A stretch of DNA of 64,000 bases, taken from NCBI GenBank assembly GCA_045648505.1, contig JAZROD010000032.1:722-64721 (forward strand), in the 5' to 3' direction. The DNA comes from Clostridia bacterium. GTDB taxonomy: Bacteria; Bacillota; Clostridia; RGIG6154. The position numbers were made by a program, and so were the translations under genes. Positions 4,338 to 32,450 of this stretch are shown in pieces (within the stretch, counting starts at the first letter, position 1; every line of letters begins with the position of its first letter). The notes beneath the pieces were generated by a model that was given only the letters and a program-made list of their open reading frames with translations, ran no database searches and was not told where the DNA came from.

Positions 4338-5114
4338 GTGAGATGCTTGGCTGATTACCATCTTACCAATTACGGGTGCAGAGCTTTTAAGAAAAATGAA
4401 GTCTGGCAGTTTAACAACGATAATGTAAACAGACTTCATTATGTTGTCAGCGGAAAAGGCTATTATATTTTAAACGGCGAAAAAATTTATTTCAAACCTG
4501 GGTGCATTTATATTATTCCACCGTTCTTTGATTACAACACAGGCTATGATAAAGATATCGGCTTTAAACATATGTATTTCGATTTCTTTTCTGCAAGGCT
4601 TTTTGGGTTTGAAGAACCGCTCTGCCTTGAAGCAAGTGAACATGAAAGCATTCAGGGTGTTCTGAATATGCTCACAAGCTTTTTTGCGGATTGTGACAGA
4701 GGTCTGTATGATAAAGAAAAGAAAAAGATACATATAACGAGAGCGTTCACTTTTTTAATGGAGCTTATTGATGATTGCTACAATATCCGCTATGTCGCAG
4801 ATGAAAGAATTGAAAAGATTTTAAGATATATCCACGAAAATTATGCAAATGATATTACGGTAGATGATATGGCAAATCATTTGTATTTAAACAAAAGCTA
4901 TTTTTCAAAAATGTTTATGGAAAAAGTAAAAATGTCCCCACACGAATATCTTATATACTATCGTGTTATAAGAGGAATTGAAATGATAAAAAAAGGGCAA
5001 AAGATTAGCGATGTGGCAGAAAAAGTAGGATATAAAAACGCAAATTCATTTTCAACTGCTGTGAGAAAATACACCGGAAGTTCTCCAAAAGCTAACAAAT
5101 TAAGCTTGTTTTAA
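4338..5114 (+). CDS. AraC-family transcriptional regulator (cupin sensor plus C-terminal HTH)
   Basis: C-terminal AraC HTH region (ITVDDMANHLYLNKSYFSKMF ... GYKNANSFSTAVRKYTGSSP). Non-ATG start; GTG 4338 or TTG 4347, uncertain. Confidence 0.85.
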   Translation: MRCLADYHLTNYGCRAFKKNEVWQFNNDNVNRLHYVVSGKGYYILNGEKIYFKPGCIYIIPPFFDYNTGYDKDIGFKHMYFDFFSARLFGFEEPLCLEASEHESIQGVLNMLTSFFADCDRGLYDKEKKKIHITRAFTFLMELIDDCYNIRYVADERIEKILRYIHENYANDITVDDMANHLYLNKSYFSKMFMEKVKMSPHEYLIYYRVIRGIEMIKKGQKISDVAEKVGYKNANSFSTAVRKYTGSSPKANKLSLF

Positions 5115-5212: not shown

Positions 5213-8212
5213 ATGATGAAAAAATTTATAGCAATTGTAATGTGTATTATGCTTGTTTGCAGTGTTATTACAACAGTATCTGCAGATGAAACAACAGAGT
5301 ACATAACTTTCGATTTAAGAGAGGCAGGTGCAAATGCACAGATATTCGGTACTCAGGCAACTGCTGAGGCAATAGCGCAGATTCAGTCGGCTATTCCAAC
5401 AGTGAGCGATACACCTGTAGAATATTATTCTGCATATCCAACAAAAAAGGTAGACTCTACTAATATACCTGGCATAAGAGTAGTTCAAGTTCTTAATAAA
5501 GATGCTTTTGACGCTCAAAAAACAGCAGATGGTCTTATTTATGATATGAATAATGAAATACCTTTTAAAATCTTAACTGACGAAAATGCATCAAACGGTA
5601 TTTTAATAGGTACATCTAATGGCAATGAGCAGGTTCTTACACTCAATGCTGAAAAAGAAATGAATATGTTATACATATATTATACAACAACACCATCAAG
5701 CAAAATAGCTAACATTACTATAACATACACAGATAACTCAACAGATAATAAGTCTTTTGAAATCAAAGGTGCTGAATGGAACGAAGCTAACATAACAACA
5801 GGCTACTGGGGTAAAAAGTTTAAGCTTTTCTACAATATAAACCATTCATTAGCTACAAATGACGACTCTGTAGCAGTATCTGCAGCTACAGCTGCAGCCG
5901 ATGCAGAGAGACATCCAAATATCGCTGCGATAGAGTTAAACAGCACAAAAAAAGTGAAAAGCATTGCATTTAAGCTTTCAGATGGTTGGATAACAGCAGC
6001 AATTATCGGTATAACAGGTAGAGCTGCAACAGCGGAAGAAATTGCATCAGGAGCAACAACAATGAATTTAGCAGCACTTAAAGCTAAATACGCAGATGCA
6101 TCAGCAGTTACAATGGCTAATTGCAATGATGTAAGTACTTTACTTGCTGAAATCAATGATGAATTTGTACCTGTTGAAGATGCAGAGTATGTAGCATCAA
6201 TCAGAGCAGCAGTTGAAGCCATTTTTGCACAGGTAGATGAAACTGTTGCAAAATATGATATATTAGAAATTTCTAAGAATGTTCCTTTAGCTGCAAATGT
6301 AGGGGATACAACCAAAGTTATAGGTATTCAGCATGAGTTTGATGATCCGGCATTAGATACCGACAATGGCAATGATCAGTATGCCTTCAATATAGCTGCA
6401 CTTAATTATAAGGCAGTTAAGGGTTATACATTCTCAAACGATAACATACCTTTCAAAATTGAAGCTGACAGTAACGGATACTACGGAAGAAAAATCACTG
6501 GTAAGGCTAATCCTGCAGCAGAACTTACAGGAACTTATGAATTAACTATTCCTGAAGGTAAGAAATATACTAAAATAAGCTTTGTTGCACCTGCTTCGGG
6601 TACAGAAACTCAGAACAGAGATGATGTTTCATATAAACTTGTTTATGACGATGGAACAGCAAATGGTAAAACGGTAATATATAATACTAGCCAAATTCAG
6701 TGGAATACAGTAGCAAGAGAAGAGAATAAGACTTCACTTGTAAATGATCCAAATGCTTCATATATCCTTTATGAAACAGATACTAATAACAGAAACAATA
6801 CATATAACTGGTTAACATACGATTATTCAGCAGGAAAATACCTTTCAGTTAATGATGCTTTCTTAAATACTTATGTACCTGTGTATAACTTACCTGTTGA
6901 CCCTACAAAAACTCTTAAAAAGGTTGTAATAACCTGTACACCAGTATGGCGTGCAAACACAATCCTTGCAGCAACAGCACATAAAGCTGTTCTTTCAGAT
7001 GTTATTGACACATTGGAAGTAACAGCTGAAACCTACAAAGATGTAAGTGTAATGATTGAAGAATTACCTGAAGGAGATTTAACACCTGCACAGGAAGAAA
7101 AATTAGAAGTCATCAAAAAGCAGATTAAATTCTATGTTCAGGATTATGTACCTTTCGAAATTCCTGAAAACGTATTTAATGGTAAAGTGTTTGGTACCGA
7201 TGTTGCCAAAGCAGATGTAAAACTTGAGGATTATATTTCTGTAAACGATACAGTAGGTGATAGTTGTATTCTCGACAAAGTTAAATGGGATGCTGACAAG
7301 AAAGAAGGCTTGATTTATTCAGCAAATGATATTCCATTTAATGTAAACACAGATAAAGGTTTGCTTTTCGGTAATCATTCACAAGAGATAGTTAGAATTG
7401 ACATCCCTGAAGGAAATTACGATTCTATAAGTGCATTGTTTGCATTTTCAAATGTAGATAGTGGTGCATTTAAAATGAGAGCAATATATGATGATGGAAA
7501 TGAAACAGTTGATTCAAACTGGGATCCTGCAAACTACGGGCATTGCAACGGAAACTTTGAAACACAGACTAAGACAGACAAGAAAGAAGCAGATTCATAT
7601 GTTGTAATTTCAGGTGGCGGTACATTGAGAGACGATAATGATCCTGACAGATTCACTACTTTTGGTGCAAGGTATTATTTCCCTGTTATGACTCTTGATA
7701 CAGATATAGAAAAAACACTTGTAGCAGTTGAATTCACAAATACAAGAAATAATGTAAACGGAGCAATTCTCGGTGTAACAGGTTCAAGAAATGATTCAAC
7801 TCATAAGACACTTACAAGAGTATTTAACTCACTTATGAATAGCTTTACAGATGCCGAACTTGAAGCTGCTCACAGCGCATATGTAAACTCATATGATACA
7901 GGTCTTTACACAAACAAAACTTACGGTTTAGAACCTATGGATGTAATTTATCTTAAACATAGTAACAACACTTTAAGCGGTAAGGTTATGTCTTATGTAA
8001 ATACAGATAATGAGTATACAGTTGTTGCATTGGTTTTAAATGCAGACGGTTCATTTGACAGAGTTGAAATAATGGGCAACGGCACAGCTAATTTAAGTGC
8101 TCACGATTTCAGTGAAACAATAGTACTTGAAGAGGGACAGAAAATCAATGTTCTTCTCTGGGAAAACTTTGCAACACTTAAACCTTATATGACAGCGAAA
8201 GTCGTAAAATAG
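5213..8212 (+). CDS. Secreted 999-aa protein A: signal peptide, three copies of an unassigned ~200-240 aa module, C-terminal W-motif module
   Basis: Signal peptide MMKKFIAIVMCIMLVCSVITTVSA. Module copies lie at about 5291-6033, 6258-6987 and 7144-7792. The C-terminal end reads VLLWENFATLKPY. Confidence 0.8.
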   Translation: MMKKFIAIVMCIMLVCSVITTVSADETTEYITFDLREAGANAQIFGTQATAEAIAQIQSAIPTVSDTPVEYYSAYPTKKVDSTNIPGIRVVQVLNKDAFDAQKTADGLIYDMNNEIPFKILTDENASNGILIGTSNGNEQVLTLNAEKEMNMLYIYYTTTPSSKIANITITYTDNSTDNKSFEIKGAEWNEANITTGYWGKKFKLFYNINHSLATNDDSVAVSAATAAADAERHPNIAAIELNSTKKVKSIAFKLSDGWITAAIIGITGRAATAEEIASGATTMNLAALKAKYADASAVTMANCNDVSTLLAEINDEFVPVEDAEYVASIRAAVEAIFAQVDETVAKYDILEISKNVPLAANVGDTTKVIGIQHEFDDPALDTDNGNDQYAFNIAALNYKAVKGYTFSNDNIPFKIEADSNGYYGRKITGKANPAAELTGTYELTIPEGKKYTKISFVAPASGTETQNRDDVSYKLVYDDGTANGKTVIYNTSQIQWNTVAREENKTSLVNDPNASYILYETDTNNRNNTYNWLTYDYSAGKYLSVNDAFLNTYVPVYNLPVDPTKTLKKVVITCTPVWRANTILAATAHKAVLSDVIDTLEVTAETYKDVSVMIEELPEGDLTPAQEEKLEVIKKQIKFYVQDYVPFEIPENVFNGKVFGTDVAKADVKLEDYISVNDTVGDSCILDKVKWDADKKEGLIYSANDIPFNVNTDKGLLFGNHSQEIVRIDIPEGNYDSISALFAFSNVDSGAFKMRAIYDDGNETVDSNWDPANYGHCNGNFETQTKTDKKEADSYVVISGGGTLRDDNDPDRFTTFGARYYFPVMTLDTDIEKTLVAVEFTNTRNNVNGAILGVTGSRNDSTHKTLTRVFNSLMNSFTDAELEAAHSAYVNSYDTGLYTNKTYGLEPMDVIYLKHSNNTLSGKVMSYVNTDNEYTVVALVLNADGSFDRVEIMGNGTANLSAHDFSETIVLEEGQKINVLLWENFATLKPYMTAKVVK

Positions 8213-8221
8213 TTTTTTAAT

Positions 8222-8260
8222 AAAGCACGATTTTTGTTATAAAAAATCGTGCTTTTCATT
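8222..8260 (+). terminator. Rho-independent terminator/attenuator between proteins A and B
   Basis: Stem AAAGCACGATTTTT/AAAAATCGTGCTTT followed by a T-rich tail. Confidence 0.7.
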
Positions 8261-8277
8261 TAGGAAAGGAAAATGTT

Positions 8278-11200
8278 ATGAAAAAGATGCCATTGAGAAT
8301 TACAGCACTTTTGTTATGTGCATCTCTTATCTTTGCATTGTTTACTTGCGCAAGTGCTCAAGGTGCAACAGAGTATATTACTTTTGATTTAAGAGAAGCA
8401 GGGGCAAATGCGCAGATTTTCGGAACTCAGGCAACAGCCGAGGCGATAGCAACTGCACAGACAGGTGTTTTAACAACAGATAATACAACTGCGGGCTATT
8501 CTTCATATCCATCTAAACAGTTGGATATTGACAGTGGAAGAGGTATAAGAATAGTTCAGGTACTTAATAAAGAAGCTTTTGATGCAAAAAAAGATGTTAA
8601 TGGTCTTATCTATGATAAAACAGGAACAATACCTTTTAAAATCTTAACAGATGAAAATGCATCAAACGGTATTTTAATAGGTACATCTAACGGTAATGAG
8701 CAGGTACTTACACTTAATGCAGAAAAAGAAATGAGTAAGTTGTATATCTATTATACAACCACATCAAATACTACACCTAATATTACCGTAACATATGCAG
8801 ATAACTCAACAGATATTAAGCCTTTTGGGATAAAAGGTGCTGAATGGAACGAAGCTAATATAACAACAGGTTACTGGGGACAAAAGTTTAAACTTTTCTA
8901 CAATATAAACCATTCGTTATCAGATTCAATGTCAATTGCTACAGCTGCTGCTGATGCAGACAGACATCCAAATATTGCGGTTATAGATTTAAACAGTACA
9001 AAGAAAGTGAAAAGTCTTTCATTTAAGCTTTCTGATGGTTGGAGAACTACTGCGGTTATCGGTATAACAGGTCAGGTTGCAACATCAGAAGAAATTAATG
9101 CTTATTACAGAGTACAGATTGATGAATTATTAGCTCAGCTTCCTGCAGATGCAGAAAATATTGATGATACAAATTATATAGCATACGGCAGTATTGTTGA
9201 ACAAATTGAAGCTATAAATGAAGGCAAAAATATACTTTCTGAACAGGAAATGGAGTTTATTGCGTCTATCAAAGAAGCAATCAATGATGTTTTAAATTCT
9301 TATTCACCATATATCACAGTTGATTTTTCACAAAGCTTTAATGCAAAGATATTTGCAGATGGTGGCAGTGCTATAGCAGATTATGACAATCCTTTGATGT
9401 ATATCCCTGCTTATGCAAATGTTTCAGGCACATGGGTTCCTGCAACAAACAGAGCTCTTAACAGACCTGCTTTCAATGCTTTAAAATCAGGTGACGGTAA
9501 CATTTATTCAAACAAAGGAATTCCTTTTGCTGTTAATGTTACAGGCGGTCTTGCGTTTGGCGGAAGATCAAATCCTATGAATGATGAAATAATCAATTTA
9601 AACGGTGTATATGCAGATTCGCTTCACATTATGCTTCCTGCAACTAAAGGCTCAGACGAAAACAGAACATACAAGGCAAAAGTTACTTATGCAGACAATA
9701 CAGAAGAAGAGTTTGCATTAAAATTCAAAGGAATTAATGTTTCTGCGCCAACAGATTGCGACTATCTCGCCGTGCAGAATATGTATATTTATAATGCAAA
9801 TGGTGATGTTGATGGAAATTTAAGATATCTTGAAGTTCTTGAACTTGATACAGACTTTTCAAAGCCTGTAAAGAGCATCACATTTTCAAACACAGACCAA
9901 TACGGCGGTTATGCAGTAATTGGTTTAACAGCAGAAATTGCAGATGAAAACAGTATCAAAGCTGACATCGAAGCAAAAATTGCAAGTGTTATTCAAAAAG
10001 AAATGGCTAAGGCTGAATATGAAATAAATGGTATATACGACCTTGTAAATCATTATGAAGCTAATTTTGAAAATGAAACATTAACAGGCAAAGCAGAATT
10101 TGACGCATATTATATGCAATATGTAAATTCGGTAGCAAGAGTAAACAGTGCAACAAGCTCAACTGACCTTTCAGAAACAAAGGCAGAAATTACTTTTGAA
10201 AACGAAATGAATTCAGCTGACCTTTTAGAAAAAGTAACTGTTACTTTGAATGGTGCCGAAACTAAAGATTACACAGCAACATATGCAAACAAGGTGTTAA
10301 AGATAAGCTTTAAAAACAATCTTGAATATGACAAAAGATATGTTATAACAATTCCAAGCGGAGTTGTAAGCAATGGCGGTATGCAGATGACAAACGCATA
10401 CACATACGCTTTTGATGCAGTTGAACCAATTGGATTTGAAACATATTCAGTTTCTTCAAACAATGTAGCAGTTAAACTTAAAAACTTTACATTGGGTGCA
10501 GGGCAGTCATATTTTATGACTGTTGCTCATATAGCATCAGATGGTTCAGTTAAAAAGAGTTATTTAGTAAAAGGAACTCTTGCGAAAGATGCATTCAAAG
10601 AAAAAACATTTAATTTTGAACCTCTTGCAACAGGGGAAAAATATGTAACATACACTCTTGATTCTGTTTCTGCTTTAAATTCAATTGTTAAAGAAAAGGG
10701 AACAGAACCTGCAGTAACAACAGATGGAACAATTAATGAAAAACTTCTGGTACATCCGGTAGACCTTGCGACTAACTCTGTTAAAATCGAAGGTGTAATG
10801 CCTGGTAAAGATGTTGTAAACATTGTTATTATAAATCCGGGAATGAATATTTCTGCAAACGGAGAATATACAGATGCAGTGCAGAATCAGATATCTGTAA
10901 AAACAGCGGAAAACGGATACTACTGTGCATCATTAAAGCTTAATAACCAGACATCAGGTGTGTTTAATGTTTATGCAGGAGATGAAAATGGTACATTCTT
11001 CTTTGCTTCAGATACAAATAAGAATGATATCATAAGAAATGTATTAAACAGCGGTAATGAAACATTGATAAAAGAGAATCTTGATGATATTTACCAGAAT
11101 TTTGGTCTTGACACATTTGTTCCTGTTACAGTTTCAGATGACGATGTTATGACATCAAAAATTATTGCAGGTGCACCATATAGCGAAAACGATTTCGGCA

Positions 11201-12336
11201 AAGTGCAGAGCGTTATTATGGAAGCTGCGGTGCTTGACCTTTACAATAGCTCTAAAACAGTAAACCTTGCAGATGAAAGCTTAAATCTTCTTTATGATGA
11301 TGTAACAAACTTTTCAAAGCTTGATGCAAAATACAATACAACAATTTACAGTGCATATTTAAAAACTTTGAATAATGCAGGTAAAATGGCAGTAATTGAT
11401 GCAGTGTCTGGCAATAACTTTTCTTCAATGGAAGACCTTGGTAAAGCACTTCTTAAAGCAATATTTACAAAGGCTGTTAATATGACAGACAGAAAAGGCG
11501 TTCTCCATGTTGAAGAAATCTTAACAAAAAATAATGCTGCAGCAATCGGACTTGATTTAAATACTTACTTTGCATCTTCTTATGCAGGCAGAGTAAACAG
11601 TGCAATTTCAGTTGCAGGTGAATATCAGGATGCAGATGCATTGAAGCTTGCAATAGATACCCTGATTACTCAGTATAAAAATGAAACACCTGCAGGAGGC
11701 GGCGGAGGCGGCGGTTCTTCAGGAGGAGGAATCAGCGGCGGTGTTGTTGGTGATGTTACAAACAACAATCCTGTGATTATTCCTGTAGAGAACACAAACA
11801 CAGGATTCAGAGATATTAACGATGCATTATGGGCAGAAAAAGCAATTAATGCTCTTGTAAATGATGGAATTATCTCAGGATATCCTGATAATACATTCAA
11901 GCCAAACAAAAATATTACAAGAGAAGAGATTATAAAAATTATTTGTGTTGCATATGACATTCAGCCTGACAGTAATTATGTTGAAAGATTCAGTGATGCA
12001 AGCTACAGCGAGTGGTATGCACCTTACATAAATGCAGCTTATAAAAACGGCATAACTCTCGGGAAAGAAGATAAATCATTTGGTATTGGAGAAGGTGTTA
12101 CAAGACAAGATTTACTTGTAATGCTTTACAGAATGATTGAAGAAAAAGCTGAAACAGAAACAGAAGAATTTAAGGATTCAGCAGACATTGCTGATTATGC
12201 AAAAGAAGCGGTTATGTACTTTGCATCAAAAGGTTTTGTTTCAGGATATGAAGACGGCAGCTTTAAGCCGCTTAATGTGTGCACAAGAGCAGAAGCTGCG
12301 ATGATAGTCTATAATTGTTTAGGAGGTAATAACTGA
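8278..12336 (+). CDS. Secreted 1352-aa protein B: two copies of the unassigned module, Ig-like domains, poly-Gly linker, C-terminal SLH triad
   Basis: Signal peptide present. The N-terminal ~240 aa is paralogous to protein A. The second module is at 9310-9939. Three SLH repeats lie at about 11805-12333 (FRDINDALWAEKAINALVNDGIISGY, FSDASYSEWYAPYINAAYKNGI, FKDSADIADYAKEAVMYFASKGFVSGY). Confidence 0.85.
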   Translation: MKKMPLRITALLLCASLIFALFTCASAQGATEYITFDLREAGANAQIFGTQATAEAIATAQTGVLTTDNTTAGYSSYPSKQLDIDSGRGIRIVQVLNKEAFDAKKDVNGLIYDKTGTIPFKILTDENASNGILIGTSNGNEQVLTLNAEKEMSKLYIYYTTTSNTTPNITVTYADNSTDIKPFGIKGAEWNEANITTGYWGQKFKLFYNINHSLSDSMSIATAAADADRHPNIAVIDLNSTKKVKSLSFKLSDGWRTTAVIGITGQVATSEEINAYYRVQIDELLAQLPADAENIDDTNYIAYGSIVEQIEAINEGKNILSEQEMEFIASIKEAINDVLNSYSPYITVDFSQSFNAKIFADGGSAIADYDNPLMYIPAYANVSGTWVPATNRALNRPAFNALKSGDGNIYSNKGIPFAVNVTGGLAFGGRSNPMNDEIINLNGVYADSLHIMLPATKGSDENRTYKAKVTYADNTEEEFALKFKGINVSAPTDCDYLAVQNMYIYNANGDVDGNLRYLEVLELDTDFSKPVKSITFSNTDQYGGYAVIGLTAEIADENSIKADIEAKIASVIQKEMAKAEYEINGIYDLVNHYEANFENETLTGKAEFDAYYMQYVNSVARVNSATSSTDLSETKAEITFENEMNSADLLEKVTVTLNGAETKDYTATYANKVLKISFKNNLEYDKRYVITIPSGVVSNGGMQMTNAYTYAFDAVEPIGFETYSVSSNNVAVKLKNFTLGAGQSYFMTVAHIASDGSVKKSYLVKGTLAKDAFKEKTFNFEPLATGEKYVTYTLDSVSALNSIVKEKGTEPAVTTDGTINEKLLVHPVDLATNSVKIEGVMPGKDVVNIVIINPGMNISANGEYTDAVQNQISVKTAENGYYCASLKLNNQTSGVFNVYAGDENGTFFFASDTNKNDIIRNVLNSGNETLIKENLDDIYQNFGLDTFVPVTVSDDDVMTSKIIAGAPYSENDFGKVQSVIMEAAVLDLYNSSKTVNLADESLNLLYDDVTNFSKLDAKYNTTIYSAYLKTLNNAGKMAVIDAVSGNNFSSMEDLGKALLKAIFTKAVNMTDRKGVLHVEEILTKNNAAAIGLDLNTYFASSYAGRVNSAISVAGEYQDADALKLAIDTLITQYKNETPAGGGGGGGSSGGGISGGVVGDVTNNNPVIIPVENTNTGFRDINDALWAEKAINALVNDGIISGYPDNTFKPNKNITREEIIKIICVAYDIQPDSNYVERFSDASYSEWYAPYINAAYKNGITLGKEDKSFGIGEGVTRQDLLVMLYRMIEEKAETETEEFKDSADIADYAKEAVMYFASKGFVSGYEDGSFKPLNVCTRAEAAMIVYNCLGGNN

Positions 12337-15131
12337 TGAAAAGAATAATATGTTTAACTTTAACAATATTGTTTTTGTTAAGTTTATCTGCCTATGCAAG
12401 CAATAGCTATTCAGACTTTGCAACAGGTATGGGCTTTATGGAAAAAGCAGATGATGCACAGGTGACAAGAGGTCAGTTTGCAGAAGTGCTTTGTAAGGCT
12501 TTAGGAATTAATCTTGGAACCGATGCGGATGTGGCAACTGATTGGTACAACGGATTGTTCACAGAGGACAATACCGATACTGTAGTTGATAACAGCGGTT
12601 TTTCTCAGAAGTTTTTAGATGTTCCTTCAACACATACATATTATGAAGCAATAACAAAAATTTCAGACCTTGGTCTTATGATAGGAACTGCAGAAAATAT
12701 GTTTGATCCGGACTCTGTAATTTTAGAGCAAGAAGCTGTTAAAGTGCTTGTTACTATAACAGGTAATTCATATTTTGCTAACACTAAAGGCGGATATCCT
12801 TACGGATACAATCTTGTTGCGGCAACAAACGGTATGTTTGAAGGTTGCACATATAAGGGTGACAGTCCTCTTACAGAGGAAACTCTTGCAGTATTCTTGT
12901 TCAATACTTTGAATATGGATCTTACCGTAAACAATTTTGAGTATGGCAAGGTGGTATTCTCAGTTGCAGAGGGACAAAACATCCTTAAAAGATCCCATAA
13001 TATCTCTTTCGATGAAGGAAGAGTTACTGCTAATGAGTTTACAGCTTTATATTCAATGCCAGAAGCCGGTGAAGATAAAGTTATAATCAACGGCGTAAAA
13101 TACGGTATTAAAGATGCATCATATGTAAGAGATTTTATTGGCTATGACATTGAATTTTATTACAATGCAGAAGATAATGAAATTAAATACGCATACATTG
13201 ACAGTAGCTGCGAAATAGAAAGATTTAATAGCTTTGAAATAGAAAAATTCAAGGATTACAGACTCTATTATTACATAGATGAAGAAAAGTCAGATACAGA
13301 CTATATTGACCTTTCGCGCAATCTTAATGTTATTTACAACGGTACCTATATGAAAGAATATACTGATGATGTATTCAAGTTCCCGTTTGGTGATGTAACT
13401 GTTATTAAGTCACAGTTAGAATCACAGTATGATACAGTTGTAATAAACGATTATGAGCCTTACTATCTTACAGATGTAAAGAGTGACAAAACAGGTATTT
13501 ATGCATCAAAAGTAACAGAAAGTAATGCACAGTTCTTTGATTTAAGCAGAGTTAAAATCAATTGCTACGATGGAGAAAACAAACCTGTTTCTCTTGAAAG
13601 TTTGAAAGCAGGAACTTTAGTTGAGATCGCCAAAGGTGATGACTGTGCAATAATTAAAGCTGCCTCAAAAAAACTTGAGGGTGTAACAATTAAAGCAATT
13701 GAATTTGATGAAAAAATAACCTTCATCACACCTGACGGTGAAACTTATACTGCTTATGATATATGGTATAATGCATCAAAATTTAAACCTGTTGCAGGCG
13801 GTAGCTATTCACTGTATGTTAACTCTTTTGGTTATGTATGTAAAATAGACAGAACCACAGGTGAGCTTACAGCAGATTACCACCTTTATCTCAACGCTGA
13901 ATACGGCAGCAGAGGTGGATTAAACGACAAGAACATCAAGTTGAAGGCAGTAAATAATAAGGGTGCAGTTGTTGTTTATGATATTAATGAAAATGTAAGA
14001 GTTTACAAAGGCAACAGTATAATAAAAGGAAAAAATGCCAAGGAACTTTATGATAAGCTTACAGCTTCAGGAGTTTTAGTTGAAAATACAGCTTTCTTAG
14101 TAACTTTATCTGAAGAAGGAAAGGTAACAAAGCTTGAATTCCCATCATCTGATGATGTAAGAAAGAATATGCTTGGTGTAATGTCTTCTGGTGACAGCGT
14201 TGCATACTTGACATCACCAGAAAATATGTTTGAAAACAGAACGGTTATTTCTCAGGCAAAAGTTGTTTTCAGAATAAATAATAAAGCAACAGATGAAAAC
14301 AAAAAATATGCAACAGTTACATCATCAGAATTTGCAGACGGCAATACATACAAAATGATTGCATATAACAGAAACAGCGATTCTGTTTTGGCTGAATGTG
14401 TTATTGTGTATGCTGATGAGGCAAGTGTAAGTATCAGCCAATATACAAACAAAATTTACATTGTTGAAAAAGTTCTCTCTCAGGTTAACGAAGAAGGAGA
14501 AAGCATCAGCACATTAAATGGTTATGCGGTATCAAGAGATTCAAATTCACTTGAACAGGTTGTTCTCCCTTCATCTGCTGATAATGAATTTGCTACAGTT
14601 AAAGATTTCTTTGGAAATACATACACCCTTAAAAAGGGAGATGTGGTTCTTGTAAGAACCTTTAACGGTATGGCAGACGATGTTTATCTTGTTTACAGAA
14701 GTCAGGATTTAAACAACAATGGAAGTCTTGGTGATTTGGTCGGAACATCAAATGTTTTTGATGCACCAAATGTAAATACAAATCCTTACGGTGTAACAAA
14801 CCAGCTTGCTGCACAAAGTAACAATATGAACAAATATCGCTCAGGCAGTACAAGATTTTTTGCAGGCTATGTAACGGATATTGAAAACAGCAGATATATC
14901 TCTTACACAAATTATCTTGCAAATGCAGAAAAAGACCTTAAAGACAGCAAATATCTTACTGAAACAACAGTACTTCCAAATAATATTGTTGTAATTGAAA
15001 GTAAGCCTTTCACAGTAAGAACAGGCACTTATGCTGATATTAAAACATATAAAAATTACGGTGATGAATGTTCGAGAATTTTAATTAACACAGATTCAGG
15101 ACGAGTAAGACAATTATTAATATTTAACTGA
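12336..15131 (+). CDS. Secreted 931-aa protein C: N-terminal SLH-like repeats plus ~700 aa of unassigned beta-rich sequence
   Basis: Signal peptide MKRIICLTLTILFLLSLSAYA. SLH-like FLDVPSTHTYYEAITKISDLGLMIGT. The ATG overlaps the stop of protein B (TGATG). Confidence 0.75.
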   Translation: MKRIICLTLTILFLLSLSAYASNSYSDFATGMGFMEKADDAQVTRGQFAEVLCKALGINLGTDADVATDWYNGLFTEDNTDTVVDNSGFSQKFLDVPSTHTYYEAITKISDLGLMIGTAENMFDPDSVILEQEAVKVLVTITGNSYFANTKGGYPYGYNLVAATNGMFEGCTYKGDSPLTEETLAVFLFNTLNMDLTVNNFEYGKVVFSVAEGQNILKRSHNISFDEGRVTANEFTALYSMPEAGEDKVIINGVKYGIKDASYVRDFIGYDIEFYYNAEDNEIKYAYIDSSCEIERFNSFEIEKFKDYRLYYYIDEEKSDTDYIDLSRNLNVIYNGTYMKEYTDDVFKFPFGDVTVIKSQLESQYDTVVINDYEPYYLTDVKSDKTGIYASKVTESNAQFFDLSRVKINCYDGENKPVSLESLKAGTLVEIAKGDDCAIIKAASKKLEGVTIKAIEFDEKITFITPDGETYTAYDIWYNASKFKPVAGGSYSLYVNSFGYVCKIDRTTGELTADYHLYLNAEYGSRGGLNDKNIKLKAVNNKGAVVVYDINENVRVYKGNSIIKGKNAKELYDKLTASGVLVENTAFLVTLSEEGKVTKLEFPSSDDVRKNMLGVMSSGDSVAYLTSPENMFENRTVISQAKVVFRINNKATDENKKYATVTSSEFADGNTYKMIAYNRNSDSVLAECVIVYADEASVSISQYTNKIYIVEKVLSQVNEEGESISTLNGYAVSRDSNSLEQVVLPSSADNEFATVKDFFGNTYTLKKGDVVLVRTFNGMADDVYLVYRSQDLNNNGSLGDLVGTSNVFDAPNVNTNPYGVTNQLAAQSNNMNKYRSGSTRFFAGYVTDIENSRYISYTNYLANAEKDLKDSKYLTETTVLPNNIVVIESKPFTVRTGTYADIKTYKNYGDECSRILINTDSGRVRQLLIFN

Positions 15132-15147
15132 TTTTGGAGGTTGACAA

Positions 15148-16053
15148 ATGAGTTTTACAAAGAAGAACCTGTTGCCGGTCATAAAGAATTCTGGGTTTAG
15201 TATGGATGGCTATTATGTCTGGTGCGGTTCAGCGATAAAAGGTGATGATGGTAAATATTATTTATTTGCTTCAAGATGGCCTGAAAATAAAAGCTTTCCG
15301 GATGGTTATATGAGTGAGTCTGAAATTGTACTTGCAACCACAGAAGATTTAGACAAACCATTTAAGTTTGAAAAAGTAATAATAGGTAAAAGGGAAGACA
15401 AATATTGGGATTCCGTTATGGCGCACAACCCAATGATAACAAAAATCGGGGATGAATATGTCTTGTTTTACATAAGCACCATTGATGGTAGTTGTGAAAA
15501 AAGATGTGTTGGATATGCCCGTTCAAAAAGTCTTACCGATGGTTGGGAAAGAGCAGAAAATCATATAGATTTACCTTTGAATTCCAACAACCCATGTTGC
15601 ATTATTGATGATGATAAAGTTCTTATGTATTTCAGAGACGGCAGTCTAAAAGTTTCTGTTGCAAAAGCAGACAGATATGACGGAAGCTATACAGTAATTA
15701 AAACAGATTTATTCCCAAAGGGAATGATAGAAGATATGTTTGTTTATAAAGAAAACGGCAAATATATTATGATTGCAGAAGATGCAGGCGGTGCATACAC
15801 AGGAATAGAAAAATCAGGAGCAAAATTTTTATCTGATGATGGTATTAACTGGGAGCCTGCGGAAGATGTACTTGTGTACGATTTTAATGTAGAGTACACA
15901 GATGGTGAAAAAATCGAGCTTCAAAGACGAGAAAGACCAATGATTCTTTTTGATAAAGAGTATGATTATCTCTTCACAACCGCAAAAACAGGCGGTGAAC
16001 AGAAATTAACAGGTGGCCACACCTGGAATATGGTTCAGAAAGTGGCAAAATAA
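15148..16053 (+). CDS. Leaderless glycoside hydrolase, 5-bladed beta-propeller type (GH43-like clan), family not resolved
   Basis: 301 aa, no signal peptide. Pattern GKYYLFASRW ... AHNPMITKIGDEYVLFY ... KYIMIAEDAGG resembles GH43/GH117-type propellers. RBS GGAGG. Confidence 0.5.
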   Translation: MSFTKKNLLPVIKNSGFSMDGYYVWCGSAIKGDDGKYYLFASRWPENKSFPDGYMSESEIVLATTEDLDKPFKFEKVIIGKREDKYWDSVMAHNPMITKIGDEYVLFYISTIDGSCEKRCVGYARSKSLTDGWERAENHIDLPLNSNNPCCIIDDDKVLMYFRDGSLKVSVAKADRYDGSYTVIKTDLFPKGMIEDMFVYKENGKYIMIAEDAGGAYTGIEKSGAKFLSDDGINWEPAEDVLVYDFNVEYTDGEKIELQRRERPMILFDKEYDYLFTTAKTGGEQKLTGGHTWNMVQKVAK

Positions 16054-16074
16054 ACAAAGAAAGGGGTCGCAACC

Positions 16075-19000
16075 ATGAGAAAATTAACGAGAGTATCAGC
16101 TTTTTTGCTGGTGTTGTTTATGCTCTCTCCTTTTATTGCTAAAGCAGAAACCGGCGTTTGCTATATGCCTGTTGATTTTTCTCAGAGCTTTAATGCTAAA
16201 GTGTTTGCACCTGGCGGAGAAGAAATTTCGGATTTCAGCGACCCCTTAAATTATATCGGAGCATATAAGCAAATTGAAGGAGAATGGACGCCTACTACAG
16301 AAAGAGCCCTTAACAAGACTGGCTTTGATGAAGCAAAGGATGCAAAAGGTCTTATTTATTCTGATTTGAAAATTCCATTTGATGTAAATACAGATGGTGG
16401 TCTTGCTTTTGGCGGAAGGACAAATCCTTTAGAATCCGTAACGGCTGACATTAATTCTTTAGTTGCAGATAAGCTTCATATTTTAATGCCAATAACAAAA
16501 GTCATTGATAAGACAAAAGACTATAATATAACCGTTCTCTATGAAGACGGGACAAAAGATGAAAACACTTTTGAGTTTACAGGGATTACCTACTTAAAAA
16601 CTGAAGGTGGGGTGGCGGTTAATAATTCTTACATAAAGGATGCCGTAGGAACTGTAGACCAGAATATAAGATATTATGATGTAATAAGTGTTGAAACAGA
16701 CATAAACAAAACAATCGATGCAATAAGCTTTTATACTAATGATCGTTACGGCGGATTTGCGGTAATCGGTATAACTGCAGAGTTTCCGCAAAACAGTTTT
16801 GAAAGTTATAAAAGTGTGCTAAATGCAGAGTTTTTGACTGAAAATACTAAAACTACAGAAGATAAAATAACTTTTGCTGAAATATTAGAAAACAGTTATT
16901 TTATAAATGAGAATTACAGACAGAATCTTTCAGGATACACAAACGGAAAATATTTCTTCAGTCCTGCAAATGAAACAGAAAAGGATGTAGATCCATATAC
17001 TTCGCCCCTTTATAACAGCGAATATATGCTTAATTTAGATGTTATAATAAATGAATTATCTGACGATTATGTATTAAAAACAAATTACGCAGAATATGAT
17101 TTAAGTCATCTGAAAAATAAAGACAGAGCAGTATATATAAAAGATAGCTTATGCCTTTATCCTGACAGTAATTACTACAAATCAGTAAATTTTATAGCGT
17201 ATAACAACAAAAGTACAGATATTTCAGATTATCCGGTTGAAATTACTTATGCTGATGGAAGCTATGATATAAAAAATATCACATTGTTACAAGGAAATGG
17301 AAGTCTGCCTGAACATAAAATCAACAAAATGCTTTTTAATACAGGGAAGGTACATGCTGACATTTTATGGGCAAGTATGGGTGAAAGCACTTCAGGACGA
17401 AATGAAATACTTCCTCCCGTAGTGTTTGAACCTACGACCGATGTAAATGGTATGGGATATATTTATGAATACAGTATTACTGTACCTGAAAATAAAAGAG
17501 TAGTTTCTGTAAAGTTTGGTGAAGCAGGGAAGCCCTGTTATCTTTTAGCTGTGACCTGTAACTCGGCAGAAATAAATGAAGAGTTTATTGAAAGAGAACT
17601 GGAAAACATCAGTGATGAGGATATTGAAAATAATTCTGCATACGAGAAGATGTTTTACATCACAGGACTGGCAAACGGTATGAAAATTGCACAGCTCCCA
17701 CAGAAATATTATGAAATTTCAGAAAGACTTGATACTGAATTTCAGGGAGAAATAACCTATAATATTTCAGATTTCAGCTTGATTTCTAAGTATGTGAACC
17801 AAAACAGACAATTACTGGAAAATGGAGCAGATATATGCTTTAATATACTTCCGGGTGAGTATAAAATCACATCAGCTATTGAGATTGATTCCACAAACTG
17901 TGGTAAAGAAGCAGGCAAAGTTATAATTAAAGCAAAAGAGAAAAATACTGTATTTTTAAGTGGAGCAATTGATATAGATAAATCTCTATTTACTCTCGTT
18001 AAAGATACAAATCCAAGAATAAGAGAAGAAAACAGAGATAAAATTTATGTAGCAAAGCTTGATTTACCGATTTCTATTAAAGATAAAACAAGATATATAG
18101 GTTATATAAATTTAATAAAAGACGAAGAAACTTTACCTATTGCATCTTATCCTGATAAGGGATATGCACATTTTGAAAAGATAACTGAAACAGGAGATGG
18201 ATTTTACTATACAGATAATCCGCAGAATGATTGGGGTAGTGCAAAAGATGTTATGGTTGAAGGGTATCTTTCAAATGACTATGGTTATGAAATCACATCA
18301 GGAGAAATTGATAGCAATAACAAAATAATCAGGCTTAAAGATGCGACAGCTTCTGATAAATATAAAAACAGAAGATACAGATTGACAAATATTCTTGAAG
18401 AGCTTGACAGTGCAGATGAATGGTATTTTGATAAAGCAGATTCAAAGCTTTATTATATGCCAAAAACTGTAAAAGACCTTGAAAATCTGCAACTTGCATA
18501 CTATGACGGAAATATCATAAATATTTCAGATGCAGAAAATGTTGTTATAGAAAATATCACATTTAAAAATTCACGTGGTGATGCAATAAGAGTTACAAAC
18601 AGTAACAATATAAACATTAAAGGATGTATGTTTTACAATCTTTCTGTTTGGTCAACTTATGTAACAAATAGCACAAATGCTGTTTTTGAAGAAAATGTTG
18701 TAAGAAACACTGCGGCAGGTATAACTATTGCAGGTGGGGATTATGAAAACCTGATTCCATCAGGCAATGTTATCAAAAACAATTTGATGTATAATATTGG
18801 TTGGTATTGCGGATATGGAAGAAACTTACCAATCGTATTAAATGATGTGGGCGGTAAGGTTATAAATAATACTGCATATAATCTTCCTTTTCACGCAATC
18901 AATTATTTCGGAAACGACAATTTAATTGCATATAACGAGCTTTATGACCTTTGCAACGAAACAAATGATGTTGCTGCTATTTATTCAAACGGTAAATATT

Positions 19001-20166
19001 ATGAAAGAGGTAGTCAGGTTTGCTATAACTATATTCACGATATAGACCACGAATATAATTTTGCAGAGTATGAGCCTGAAACAACATGGAGCTTTAACGG
19101 TGTTCAATGTGTGTATCTTGATAATGCCTTAAATGGACAAAGTGTTCATCACAACATTTTTAAAGATGTTTTAGGTGGTGTAAATGTAAACTGCGGACAA
19201 TATAATGAGGTATTTTCAAATACTATGATAAATACAAAGCACGAATCTGTTAATGTTACAAGCTACGAAAGCGGAAATGCTGAAAGAGTTGCATCCTTTA
19301 TTTCCAATTATCAGGAGAAAAAGGATAACGAAAGCTATGCTAAATACAAAGGCTTTGTAAATCCTGAAGATACCAATTATGCAGGCAGACCTGCCTATAA
19401 CAAAGTTAATAATAATCTGATAATTAACGGCAAATTGGTTTATACACAGGAAAATGTTAACTATTCCGGAAATTTTGATAATAATCATATTATGGAAGAA
19501 ACAGACGAAATTGACGAGAACGGAATTTTAAACAGTAATTCAGAAACTGCAAATAAAAATCCACAACTTTTGTCAAAAGAGAATTTTAATGTTTTGCATT
19601 TTGGTATTTCAGATGATTTTTGTGAAGAAATTCATAATAGATTTGGTATAGAATCAAATGTGATTCAAGACAATAATTCCTTTGAGTTTGTAATAGATGA
19701 TGAATTCAAAACGGGTAGTTATGAAATTTACATTTCAGGCAACAAGTTAGGAAACACAAACAAGAGTTTTGTGGCAAACAGTCTTCCGGTTTACGGAAAT
19801 ATAGAATACAATATAGTGCCTTTAGCAAAAGGATTGAAAATTAAAGGTGAAAATTATAAAGCAACGTCTTTTCTGTCAGAACAAAAAATAGGAGATTTTT
19901 GCTTACTTGATGAGAACGGATGCGAAATTGAAAATATCAATAATCATCTTGGCGAAACTGTAAGATTAACAGGTAATATCAATAATTTTAATAATAAAGG
20001 CAAAGTTTATATTGCATTTTACGGAAAAAGCGGAATGCTTATGTTAGAGGAAGCGGACAGAGATATGTATATAACACTTCCAGAAAAAGAAATCAAAGAT
20101 ATAAAAGTGTTTATATGGGATATATCAAAACTATTTCCGTATGATGATTTCATTAATGTAGTATAG
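16075..20166 (+). CDS. Secreted 1363-aa protein D: two copies of the unassigned module, right-handed beta-helix core, C-terminal W-motif module
   Basis: Signal peptide present. Module copy at 16162-16785 and a divergent copy at 17086-17560. PbH1-like rungs (NITFKNSRGDAIRVTNSNNINIKGCMFYN). LEELDSADEWYFD...LYYMP. The end reads VFIWDISKLFPY. Confidence 0.8.
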   Translation: MRKLTRVSAFLLVLFMLSPFIAKAETGVCYMPVDFSQSFNAKVFAPGGEEISDFSDPLNYIGAYKQIEGEWTPTTERALNKTGFDEAKDAKGLIYSDLKIPFDVNTDGGLAFGGRTNPLESVTADINSLVADKLHILMPITKVIDKTKDYNITVLYEDGTKDENTFEFTGITYLKTEGGVAVNNSYIKDAVGTVDQNIRYYDVISVETDINKTIDAISFYTNDRYGGFAVIGITAEFPQNSFESYKSVLNAEFLTENTKTTEDKITFAEILENSYFINENYRQNLSGYTNGKYFFSPANETEKDVDPYTSPLYNSEYMLNLDVIINELSDDYVLKTNYAEYDLSHLKNKDRAVYIKDSLCLYPDSNYYKSVNFIAYNNKSTDISDYPVEITYADGSYDIKNITLLQGNGSLPEHKINKMLFNTGKVHADILWASMGESTSGRNEILPPVVFEPTTDVNGMGYIYEYSITVPENKRVVSVKFGEAGKPCYLLAVTCNSAEINEEFIERELENISDEDIENNSAYEKMFYITGLANGMKIAQLPQKYYEISERLDTEFQGEITYNISDFSLISKYVNQNRQLLENGADICFNILPGEYKITSAIEIDSTNCGKEAGKVIIKAKEKNTVFLSGAIDIDKSLFTLVKDTNPRIREENRDKIYVAKLDLPISIKDKTRYIGYINLIKDEETLPIASYPDKGYAHFEKITETGDGFYYTDNPQNDWGSAKDVMVEGYLSNDYGYEITSGEIDSNNKIIRLKDATASDKYKNRRYRLTNILEELDSADEWYFDKADSKLYYMPKTVKDLENLQLAYYDGNIINISDAENVVIENITFKNSRGDAIRVTNSNNINIKGCMFYNLSVWSTYVTNSTNAVFEENVVRNTAAGITIAGGDYENLIPSGNVIKNNLMYNIGWYCGYGRNLPIVLNDVGGKVINNTAYNLPFHAINYFGNDNLIAYNELYDLCNETNDVAAIYSNGKYYERGSQVCYNYIHDIDHEYNFAEYEPETTWSFNGVQCVYLDNALNGQSVHHNIFKDVLGGVNVNCGQYNEVFSNTMINTKHESVNVTSYESGNAERVASFISNYQEKKDNESYAKYKGFVNPEDTNYAGRPAYNKVNNNLIINGKLVYTQENVNYSGNFDNNHIMEETDEIDENGILNSNSETANKNPQLLSKENFNVLHFGISDDFCEEIHNRFGIESNVIQDNNSFEFVIDDEFKTGSYEIYISGNKLGNTNKSFVANSLPVYGNIEYNIVPLAKGLKIKGENYKATSFLSEQKIGDFCLLDENGCEIENINNHLGETVRLTGNINNFNNKGKVYIAFYGKSGMLMLEEADRDMYITLPEKEIKDIKVFIWDISKLFPYDDFINVV

Positions 20167-20186
20167 AAAGAGAGGGTTTAAAAACT

Positions 20187-23100
20187 ATGAGAAAAATAAT
20201 ATCATTACTTTTGATACTTGTTTTAGTTTTTTCTGTTGCAGGACCTGCTTGTGCGCAGAAGAATATAGAAATTCATGTTTCCGTAAAGGGAAGCGATATA
20301 ACAGGAAACGGAAGTATTGAGAAACCCTATGCTACCTTTGAAAAAGCAAAAGCAGCAGTAAATACTTTAAGAAAAGAAACAAAAGTAAATGCTCCTGTAG
20401 ATGTAATTTTTCACGAGGGAACATATAGATTTACAAAAAGTGTAGATTTTACTGATGCAGATTCAGGAACTGCTTTATCACCTACAACCTACAAAGGTGC
20501 AGAAGGTGAAAATGTAGTTTTTAAAGGTTCGGTTGAACTTGACCTTACTAAAATCAACCTTGTTCAGGATATGGATATTTTAAACAGACTTCCATTGGAG
20601 GCAAGGGGACAGGTTGGCTATTTCAATTTAAGAGAAATGGGAATATATGAAATTCAGCCAATGAGATTTTTCAATCAGTATACAGCCCCTAACTATATTG
20701 GTTATGTTGATTTGTTTTTTAATGGAATGCAGCAACCTATAGCTCAGTGGCCTAACGGACAGAATGTTTATTCTGCCTACGAAAAGACAGTTAATGCAGG
20801 CGGCAGTGGAGAAAAAGGCGTTGGCGGTACCATAAAGCTTAAAGATTACAGACTTAAAAAATGGGTAACTGCTCCTGATATGGTGGTTGATATTTTTGGC
20901 GGAAATGACTATGCAATGGATGCTAATCTTGGTGTTTCAAGTATAAACGCCGAAGAAAAAACAATGACCTTTAAAACAGGAACAGACCAGGGCTTAAACA
21001 GTGCAAAAAGTAAGAGATTCAAAGTTAAAAATCTCATTGAAGAGCTTGACAGACCCGGCGAGTGGTATATAGACAGAGAAAAACTTATTTTATATTACTA
21101 CCCTGAACAGAGTTTTGTGGATGGTTGTTTAGAACTTTCTCTTATGGAAGATAACTTGTTTGAGCTTAATAACCTTAAATACACAAACTTTGAAAATCTC
21201 ACATTTTCACAGGTAAGAGGTGTTGTTTTCAGAGGTTATGACAGATGGGAAAACATAACAATTGATAATTGCAGATTTGAAAATATTGGCTCTTACGGAC
21301 TTTGGCATTTTTCAAATGCTACAGCATCAATAGGACAGAACACAACTCAAGGCTCTCAGTTCAGAGAAAACGGCTGTCTTAACCTGACAATAAGAAACTG
21401 TTCTTTTGATACAATTGCAAGACCTGCAATCTCAATAAGACAGGCAGGCTCATTTAACAGAATTGAACCTGGTAACTGTATTATAGAAAATAACTATTTC
21501 ACAAATACACTTACAACATCCGGTGCAGGATATTCGGTATACTATGAAGGTATAGAAGGTGACGTTAGAAACAATCTTTTCCATAATGTTCATTCAGCAA
21601 TAAACTTTTTAGGTATTGATAATGAAATAAATAACAATGAAATTTATAACATTCAGAGATACGTAAGTGACGCGGGTGCTATCTATACAGGCAGAAACTA
21701 CCTTATGAGAGATAACTATGTTTACAATAATTTCGTAAGAGATGTAAGCAATAAGGATCCGCATATGAATACAAATCATAACAGATTTGTGTATTTAGAT
21801 GATGCCCATGCAGGAATAACAGTACATAATAATATCTTTATCGGAAACGCCAGTGGTGGTGTTGCTGTAAACGGCGGTCAGGATAACCATGTTTATGACA
21901 ATATCCTTGTAAATGTTGGTCATGCACTTATGATTAACTCATGGACTGCAGGTTATGCAGACAGAATTGCAAGAGAACAGTCAATGGGTAACGATGCACT
22001 TAAAAATGAAAGCTGGAGCAGATTCCACGATAGAATTAGGCTTGGTTTATCAGAAAAATATTTAGGTCAGCCATCACTTAATACTGTTTATAACAACATA
22101 ATGATAAACGGTGAAGCAGAGGTTTCAAAAGAAAATGTGGAAATGTCTGATGTTCACGATAATATTATCGTAACAGAAGATGTTTTTGAAGATTTTGAAA
22201 ACGGAGATTTCAGAATTAAAGATGAAGAAATTATCAAAAAATTCCCTAACACTGTAACAAAAGAGAATTTCAATTACGATGATATAGGTCTTGATATAGA
22301 TAAATTTATCGTGAACCCTATTGTTAAAAATGAATTTAAGCTTCTTTATCCTAAAAACGGTGCAGTGGGAATAGATAACAAAGAAATCACCTTCACATGG
22401 CAGAGAGCGAAGGCTGCAGACAGATACAGATTTGTTCTCGCAACGGACCCGGAACTTAAAAACAGAATAATAGACGAAACAGTTTATGAAACAGCATACA
22501 CAACAGATGTTATAACAGATAACAACACAAGCTATTACTGGAAGGTTTATGCTTATAATGATTCTCTCCGCTATTTTGGAGAATGGGAGAGCAAAGGTGT
22601 TGCATACAACTTTGTCACAACAAAAGAATTCAGCCTTGAAACCGATACTCTTGACACTTTGATTATGGCGGGTAAAAAGCTTCTTGAAGATGTTGTTGAA
22701 GGTGATGAAGTAGGACAATATATCAGAGGTTTCAGAGCAAATGTTGAAGAAAAAATTGCATTTGCAGAAGAAGTAGTTTCAGGTAAGAGAAGAATGTCTG
22801 TTTCTGCAGGTTCTGCTCTTATTAAAGAACTTGACGACCTTATTAACAACCAGGTTTATGTTAAAGGCGGATACTTTAATGTTCAGACAATGCTTGAGAA
22901 TCCAGACAGATGGATTGTGAACGATGCTGCTAAACACAGAGTTAATGTTGAGGACGGAAAGATTAAGGTTACTGCTGACGAATTAAACAATATGGCTCTC
23001 TTTGGCTATGAGGGTCTTAGTGCAGCATCAAAGAAAATAGTAGTTTGCTTTAAACTTAAGGTTGATTTCGGACCGGGAACAGGCAGTGACTGGCTTGCAT

Positions 23101-23954: not shown

Positions 23955-23964
23955 AGGTGCAGAA

Positions 23965-24240
23965 ATGAAATATAACGAACTTATAAAAAATATTGCAGAA
24001 AAAGCAAATATGGATGAGGAAGCAACCAAAAATTGTCTGAATGTATTTTTAGATGAGGTTACTGATGCAATCAAAAAAGGTGAAGAAGTTCAACTTTGGG
24101 GATTTGGTAAGTTTGAAAGAAGAAAATATAACGAAAGACAATGCTATAATCCCATAACAAAAGAAATAATAACGCTTCACGGTAGCTATGCTCCTGTGTT
24201 TAAAGCGGGTGTGAAGTTAAGAAAAAAAATTAACGAATAG
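23965..24240 (+). CDS. Divergent HU/IHF-family DNA-binding protein (91 aa)
   Basis: MKYNELIKNIAEKANMDEEATKNCLNVFLDEVTDAIKKGEEVQLWGFGKFE...NPITKEII...PVFKAGVKLRK matches the HU fold pattern. RBS GAGGTG lies 5 nt before ATG 23965; the longer ORF from 23896 overlaps protein E. Confidence 0.8.
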   Translation: MKYNELIKNIAEKANMDEEATKNCLNVFLDEVTDAIKKGEEVQLWGFGKFERRKYNERQCYNPITKEIITLHGSYAPVFKAGVKLRKKINE

Positions 24241-24244
24241 TTTT

Positions 24245-24276
24245 GTTGAACCTCTTATCAGATTATAAGAGGTTCA
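24245..24276 (+). terminator. Hairpin terminator after the HU-like gene
   Basis: Stem TTGAACCTCTTAT/ATAAGAGGTTCAA with a short T-run. Confidence 0.5.
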
Positions 24277-24301
24277 ATTTAAATGCGGGAGTAGTCAATT
24301 T

Positions 24302-25579: not shown

Positions 25580-25590
25580 CAGGAGGAAAA

Positions 25591-31035: not shown

Positions 31036-31055
31036 TTACAGAGAGGATAACAAAT

Positions 31056-32441: not shown

Positions 32442-32450
32442 GGGGATATT

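Follow-up and report, generated by a model that had tools for sequence, protein, structure and literature searches.

Background

Jelly-roll carbohydrate-binding modules (CBMs), among them CBM16, CBM22, CBM15, CBM32, CBM61 and CBM6/35, are all-beta sandwiches. Secreted enzymes that act on glycans carry them singly or in multiples, as do non-catalytic surface proteins, together with dockerin and SLH domains. Comparable multi-CBM surface systems include the cellulosomal scaffoldins and SLH-anchored binding proteins of Clostridia and the SusE/F-type surface glycan-binding proteins of Bacteroides. Here we describe a module of about 210–250 amino acids (aa) that resembles jelly-roll CBMs in these respects and occurs seven times across three proteins, A, B and D, of a Clostridia bacterium. 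All coordinates refer to the window, the whole stretch of 64,000 nucleotides (nt) that was analyzed (assembly GCA_045648505.1, contig JAZROD010000032.1, positions 722 to 64,721 of the forward strand). We propose that the module represents a family of non-catalytic, CBM-like units that target their host proteins to substrate, a reading we consider moderately probable.

The module differs from jelly-roll CBMs in being 60–100 residues larger, with an N-terminal extension of about 55 residues in the window's subfamily. Moreover, demonstrated carbohydrate binding belongs to the definition of a CBM, whereas binding by the module is a prediction. Proteins A and B are likewise comparable to multi-CBM surface proteins, having a signal peptide, tandem beta-sandwich modules and no catalytic domain, with an SLH anchor in B and genes that adjoin the enzymes and regulator of one glycan-utilization locus. 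In contrast to those proteins, their modules fit no known CBM family, and no cohesin was found in the window proteins scanned.

The closest solved structure belongs to a different setting. In Streptomyces sahachiroi, AziU2 (Azi28) is one subunit of AziU3/U2, the aziridine synthase of the azinomycin B pathway, and is represented by PDB entries 7WUW, 7WUX and 8GS1 (Kurosawa et al. 2022, JACS 144:16164, cited in PMC9570651). Part of the AziU2/U3 complex is reported to have the fold of the papain-like ligase CtaG (PMC12865890); this part is presumably AziU3, and chain names and lengths suggest that AziU2 is its small beta-sandwich partner. AziU2 matches the fold of the whole module, and an AziU2 fragment, like the module, has no Pfam family. 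The two differ in that AziU2 is a single-domain subunit working with AziU3 in a biosynthetic complex, whereas the module is secreted, present in multiple copies, fused to glycan-active enzymes and set among genes for glycan utilization.

Results

Seven homologous copies of one module in three secreted proteins

The three host proteins are encoded on the forward strand and have signal-peptide-like N-termini. Protein A (999 aa, 5213–8212) consists of a signal peptide, three modules and a C-terminal tail domain of about 85 aa. Protein B (1352 aa, 8278–12336) has two modules after its signal peptide, followed by Big_5 (Pfam E 6e-9) and three C-terminal SLH repeats (E 2.7e-37) that anchor it to the cell wall. 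In protein D (1363 aa, 16075–20166), a signal peptide and two modules precede a right-handed beta-helix (Beta_helix, 34.8 bits against a cut-off of 25.9) with a GH141-type insertion below threshold (GH141_M, 24.2 bits, cut-off 27). The module is the sole element common to all three, in keeping with its earlier designation as the defining element of the locus.

Seven segments on the forward strand are homologous, paralogous copies of this module. Protein A carries A1 (5300–6037, aa 30–275), A2 (6254–6994, aa 348–594) and A3 (7145–7801, aa 645–863); protein B carries B1 (8374–9090, aa 33–271) and B2 (9310–9951, aa 345–558), the copy used for structure modeling; and protein D carries D1 (16162–16797, aa 30–241) and D2 (16918–17577, aa 282–501). 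A1 and B1 are of one type (type 1) and B2 and D1 of another (type 2), while A2 is divergent and D2 the most divergent copy. Five copies are clearly tied to one another by BLAST (E 5e-55 to 6e-9). B2 and D1 share 47–48% identity over 218 aa (B aa 345–562 against D aa 30–244, E 5e-55), and the links between types run from A1 to B2 (A aa 30–277, B aa 345–560, E 2e-10), from A1 to D1 (A aa 45–270, D aa 35–236, E 7e-10) and from A3 to D1 (A aa 687–873, D aa 79–251, E 6e-9). An iterated profile recovers D1 as well, and reaches independent E-values (i-E) of 1e-46 for both A1 and B1 and 3e-42 for A3.

The two divergent copies were tied in with profiles built from other copies. BLAST gives a weak signal for A2, which scores 27.3 bits (i-E 1e-6) with a five-copy profile built without it, against a best of 15.7 in about 2,000 shuffles; its N-terminal ~40 aa lie outside the profile match. 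Profiles drawn from the window alone find D2 only marginally (i-E 0.11 and 0.055); it scores 48.4 bits with a 133-instance profile from which D2 and its orthologues were excluded, the best of about 2,000 shuffles being 15.1. It is further linked by BLAST to modules in P0072 (aa 990–1203, E 1e-9), P0015 (aa 239–469, E 5e-9) and P0030 (aa 625–847, E 2e-4), and its N-terminal 'LSGYTNGKYFF' is the counterpart of the D-x-S-x-x-FNAK-x-F motif. The E-values and shuffle controls rule out a chance or compositional repeat. Across the six-frame open reading frames (ORFs) of the window, the five-copy profile found no match outside A, B and D.

The original prediction, a hand alignment made from the sequence, had placed seven copies in A (three), B (two) and D (two), with B2 and D1 alike over about 210 aa and A2 and D2 much more divergent; all of this holds, and the shared motifs it listed are real. 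Its boundaries needed adjustment: the starts given for A2 (6258) and A3 (7144) were out of frame by 1–2 nt, and D2, placed at 17086–17560, begins about 56 residues earlier.

Every window copy has positional orthologues elsewhere, which indicates that the module types A1/B1, B2/D1, A2, A3 and D2 are old paralogues as judged from their relatives. A3 is 72% identical to the third module of P0001, D1 is 61% identical to the first module of P0011 (an orthologue of D), and A2 has positional orthologues of 28–36% identity in P0001, P0008, P0009 and P0010. The A1/B1 pair shows 74% protein identity and 78% DNA identity over 758 nt (5292–6043 against 8366–9096), and the orthologues of A1 and B1 in other organisms are only about 40–45% identical. 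This closeness suggests that the 5' parts of the adjacent genes A and B recently underwent duplication or gene conversion from one to the other.

The three modules of A are separated by linkers of about 50–75 aa (aa 276–347 and 595–644), and B has comparable segments at aa 272–344 and after aa 559. These linkers look helical, are rich in E, A, I and K, and recall three-helix bundles or FIVAR-like repeats, with no matching Pfam family. In more distant family members the modules abut directly, without linkers.

A rare family without a described sequence counterpart

By sequence comparison, the module constitutes a family without a counterpart in Pfam, NCBIfam or PDB sequences; CAZy was judged through Pfam models and solved structures. 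Pfam matches to the B and D modules were confined to Rib-type motifs, its other matches in these proteins lying outside the modules, and protein A matched no Pfam family at E ≤ 0.1. NCBIfam returned nothing relevant for the module, and profiles of 6 and 49 copies found no significant match among PDB sequences. Similarly, Pfam placed no family over the module in 47 full-length homologues and none that recurred among 49 module sequences (E ≤ 10), where a single CBM_35 match (E 0.3) stood in isolation. The original prediction had likewise recognized no CBM, Ig, FN3, PA14, NPCBM or F5/8 pattern.

The Rib-type matches trace to one short element. The Rib repeat is an Ig-like unit of about 80 aa, and the module shares with Rib, Big and YPDG repeats a strand-turn motif, (V/I)-x-Y-x-D-G-(T/S), found for example at B aa 469–475 and D aa 389–398. 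Weak matches to Rib, RibLong, YPDG_rpt, MiiA, the group B streptococcal R4 protein and LigB arise because of this Y-x-D-G strand. For Pfam Rib (15.3–17.5 bits) and RibLong (14.6–17.5 bits), both below the cut-off of 27, the matches cover 17–26 residues around it; in contrast to a true Rib repeat, only some 20–30 of more than 210 module residues take part. We therefore rejected a Rib/YPDG assignment, as the Y-x-D-G strand alone matches.

A hidden Markov model of the module was built and its distribution scanned, as the original prediction had proposed, and the family proved rare. When 1.84 billion cluster representatives were searched exhaustively with HMMER, 81 matched at E ≤ 1e-3, 39 of them at E ≤ 1e-10; a word-indexed search with protein A alone gave five proteins. 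Local iteration yielded 198 module instances in about 77 proteins, with 1 to 6 copies per protein, mostly 2 or 3. The iterated profile did not support four of the 81 matches (P0059, P0061, P0062 and P0069), which are probably spurious hits on the Y-x-D-G motif; the match of P0069 is limited to that short region. Named relatives are mostly annotated 'hypothetical protein' and come from metagenome-assembled genomes (MAGs) of uncultured Clostridia and Ruminococcus. Distant members in Paludisphaera borealis and Flavobacterium gelatinilyticum have the module core only, lacking the N-terminal extension of the window's subfamily. For the B2/D1 subtype, 76 pattern matches in 185,579 species-representative genomes included none that could be confirmed.

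Across the family the best conserved positions are G63, the GIPF motif, Y127-x-D129-G-T/S, D-x-x-K185-x-V-x-S-I and (L/I)(A/G)xT with T207, with conservation reaching 95% for Y127, 93% for D129 and 86% for K185. Conservation across the whole family is concentrated in the strands and turns of the core, and the loops vary by module type while holding type-specific invariants, such as GGxxxGG at 79–85 and D-x-Y-G-G at 196–200 in B2/D1. This pattern of conserved core and variable loops fits a common scaffold with varied specificity.

A predicted beta sandwich with AziU2 as nearest structure

AlphaFold models predict that the module is a discrete all-beta sandwich domain. With six sequences the predicted local distance difference test (pLDDT) was 76; with 49 diverse module sequences, the AlphaFold (AF2) model of B2 reached pLDDT 96.4 and a predicted template modeling score (pTM) of 0.92, all-beta with one short helix. 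Searched against the PDB with Foldseek, the low- and high-confidence models gave the same ranking. The top four hits were copies of AziU2/Azi28 (7WUW, 8GS1), with template modeling (TM) scores of 0.59–0.63 over about 216 columns at 12–13% identity. After a clear gap came CBM16, CBM22, CBM32, CBM15, CBM61, Cry-toxin domains and the ephrin-receptor ligand-binding domain (TM 0.27–0.38, module-normalized). No viral structure exceeded TM 0.34. Since no PDB chain besides AziU2 reaches TM 0.4 (module-normalized), membership in an existing CAZy CBM family with a solved structure is unlikely.

Sequence comparison with AziU2 gave a weak, non-significant signal. The 49-sequence profile matches AziU2/Azi28 at E 0.45–0.5 (13.5–13.7 bits) in its central motifs, and the alignment is collinear through G-x-(I/L)-x3-GIPF, (I/V)-D-(I/V)-P-x-G-x-Y-x-x-I-x-(F/L)-L-A and Y-x-D-G; a profile of the C-terminal half of the module gave no AziU2 signal. 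Using a 64-aa AziU2 fragment as query, Pfam returned no family beyond a chance-level DUF2436 match, and a homologue search found no relatives. We regard a distant evolutionary link between the module and AziU2 as plausible but unproven.

These results bear on the earlier proposal of a beta-sandwich, novel CBM-type module. The Foldseek comparison and the family searches it had recommended were run; the predicted fold agrees with it, and so does novelty at the level of Pfam, NCBIfam and PDB sequences, with no confident match to a described family. A plain CBM label does not follow, the closest solved structure being AziU2.

Domain partners and genomic context

The module behaves as an accessory unit that moves between proteins. 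D, P0011, P0022 and P0025 have it on the N-terminal side of the beta-helix, P0017, P0034 and P0049 on the C-terminal side, and in P0030 it is joined to a CE2/GDSL esterase. As the general CAZy definition of a CBM asks of its sequence, it is a contiguous stretch with a discrete predicted fold inside carbohydrate-active enzymes, namely these GH141-like proteins, whose GH141_M matches lie below the cut-off, and the CE2 protein. Among 47 homologous proteins it co-occurs with dockerin, cohesin, SLH, Big_5 and fn3 domains.

All five relatives' loci examined contain glycoside hydrolase-type genes, and four of the five an AraC-type regulator or an ATP-binding cassette (ABC) sugar transporter; together they hold GH78-, GH3-, GH43- and GH140-type genes as well as BNR and SLH proteins. 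The order AraC, A, B, C, beta-helix enzyme seen in the window is repeated in L085, and the same order from B onward is found in L081, whose contig begins within a B-like gene. In L085 the beta-helix enzyme (P0017/P0092), which resembles protein E of the window, carries one module C-terminal to the beta-helix (aa 819–1034), as against two N-terminal modules in D. In window protein E the profile finds no module, and the protein is empty of Pfam matches between about aa 690 and 1110. Compared by sequence, E and P0017/P0092 look like orthologous enzymes in which the domain at one fixed position has been swapped.

A second unannotated domain, the ~85-aa tail, stands at the C-terminus of A (7949–8197, aa 913–995) and ends in '...INVLLWENFATLKPY'. 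In searches with a two-step profile, about 20 other proteins that bear the module also end in it (i-E < 1e-3), with a marginal match in P0011 (aa 1246–1319, i-E 0.011) and none in window protein D; Pfam gave no match. Because B has SLH repeats and no tail-profile match, the tail may be an alternative anchoring or sorting domain.

Gene content of the locus

The locus runs from an AraC-type regulator (4338–5114), the first gene of the forward-strand run, to 34115. Between B and D on the same strand lie protein C (931 aa, 12336–15131) and a small GH43-like protein (15148–16053) that falls below the Pfam threshold. Protein C has one N-terminal SLH repeat, beyond which about 800 aa show no Pfam or PDB sequence match, and its place beside B is conserved in both L081 and L085. 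An overlap between the start codon of C and the stop codon of B points to translational coupling of the two genes.

No match to the catalytic part of D was found in PDB sequences, and no catalytic domain was found in A. Downstream of D, protein E (20187–23954, forward strand) is of the same beta-helix type, with 28% BLASTP identity to D over 649 aa, and carries a Cu_amine_oxidN1 domain. It is followed by a GH140 apiosidase-type protein (24302–25579, Pfam E 3e-115) and by a third beta-helix protein (26992–31035) with CBM6 and Ig domains; sub-threshold GH141_M matches occur in all three beta-helix proteins of the window. Also downstream are YgjV, an inosine-uridine nucleoside hydrolase, a DUF6298/GH140-like protein and a GH63/MGH1-like protein, and the interval 15148–34115 forms a dense glycan-degradation set. 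Unlike the relatives' loci L082–L084, the cluster contains no ABC sugar transporter among the ORFs scanned.

RadA, encoded elsewhere in the window (38592–39926, reverse strand), has at most 56% identity to the best 80 species-representative genomes listed, its top matches being spread over Clostridia, other Bacillota and Ignavibacteriota MAGs. As the B2/D1 subtype was likewise confirmed in none of the species-representative genomes, the host appears to be a poorly represented, probably Clostridia-like lineage that lacks a close sequenced relative.

Discussion

We favor substrate targeting as the role of the module because it behaves as a mobile unit on either side of enzymes, occurs in tandem copies as CBMs often do, is found in glycan loci and has jelly-roll domains among its Foldseek neighbors. 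Secretion, domain partners and genomic loci form the context from which glycan binding is predicted. Several observations pull the other way. No significant CBM match was found at the sequence or profile level in Pfam, NCBIfam or PDB. The structural likeness to CBMs is weak (TM 0.27–0.31 module-normalized, 0.30–0.41 CBM-normalized), and the only full-length structural neighbor is AziU2 (Foldseek E 4.6e-5, probability 1.00). Many A-like and B-like members have no recognizable catalytic domain, which leaves room for another surface function. The CBM-like role is drawn from context, ligand binding being a prediction.

If the modules do target substrate, we infer a division of labor among A, B and D. 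Protein B, held on the wall by its SLH repeats, would display two modules that capture a complex polysaccharide, and D would keep its GH141-like beta-helix catalytic domain on that polysaccharide through a module of the B2 type (D1, about 48% identical to B2). Protein A, whose three modules are followed by a C-terminal tail, would act as a multivalent binding protein. Each of the module types (A1/B1, B2/D1, A2, A3 and D2) would probably recognize a different epitope of the same glycan. Going by the GH140-type and GH141-like families encoded nearby, the target could be a complex glycan that bears apiose or fucose, for instance rhamnogalacturonan II (RG-II), and our guess at the ligand is a pectic RG-II-like or other apiose- or fucose-containing glycan. 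A more specific proposal, which we advance tentatively and which may well prove wrong, is a new CBM family, structurally allied to AziU2, that recognizes an apiose- or fucose-bearing glycan in uncultured gut or rumen Clostridia, with A and B as Gram-positive surface glycan-binding counterparts built entirely from the module.

The alternative that fares best, though we think it unlikely, is that the modules are structural or protein–protein interaction domains (spacers, oligomerization or docking units) that hold A, B, C and D together on the wall without binding glycan. The predominance of core strands and turns in the conserved positions would suit such a role, as would the many non-catalytic, multi-module members with helical linkers and anchoring domains and the place of AziU2 in a hetero-complex. 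The near-identical module type common to A and B, and likewise the one common to B and D, could mean a shared protein partner. However, fusion on either side of different catalytic classes (GH141-like, CE2) and strict confinement to glycan loci among those examined are more typical of substrate targeting, and dockerin, cohesin and SLH domains already serve assembly and anchoring in the same proteins.

It is also conceivable, and in our view improbable, that the modules bind a non-carbohydrate target, such as a protein of the host or of mucus or another microbe's surface, which would make A and B adhesins and their link to enzymes secondary. The proteins are secreted or wall-anchored and repetitive, show weak motif-level matches to Rib, Big and YPDG adhesin repeats, and have named relatives in uncultured Clostridia and Ruminococcus MAGs. 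Yet the Rib and Big matches span only the ~20-residue 'vtYxDGt' strand at 15–17.5 bits, far below the cut-off, and the modules share proteins with glycan-active catalytic domains and loci with sugar transporters.

Very improbable, finally, is an AziU2-like auxiliary or co-catalytic unit that contributes to chemistry as well as to targeting, for instance by helping to form an active site or by an elimination- or esterase-type reaction on a decorated glycan: the full-length structural match, the weak collinear profile match (GIPF ... v-D-I-P-x-G-x-Y ... Y-x-D-G, E ~0.5) and the few strongly conserved polar positions (Y127, D129, K185) speak for it, but identity to AziU2 is only 12–13% with no signal in the C-terminal half alone, no BtrH/CtaG-like partner of the AziU3 type (PMC12865890) was found in the window ORFs scanned between 550 and 61189, the conserved residues occupy strands and turns, as is usual in structural motifs, and extracellular, multi-copy modules with some very divergent members (A2, D2) would be unusual for catalytic units.

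Conclusions

If the modules bind glycan, as the targeting reading predicts, they would form a new CBM family without a sequence relative in Pfam or the PDB, and could provide new affinity reagents for a complex polysaccharide. They would also offer a way to approach the substrate targeted by a conserved locus of uncultured Clostridia in which GH141-like and GH140-type genes abound. The structural tie to AziU2 would link an orphan biosynthetic-enzyme subunit fold to extracellular modules, aiding the annotation of both. The family model itself would allow about 200 module instances to be annotated in about 77 protein clusters, whose named members are at present mostly 'hypothetical'.

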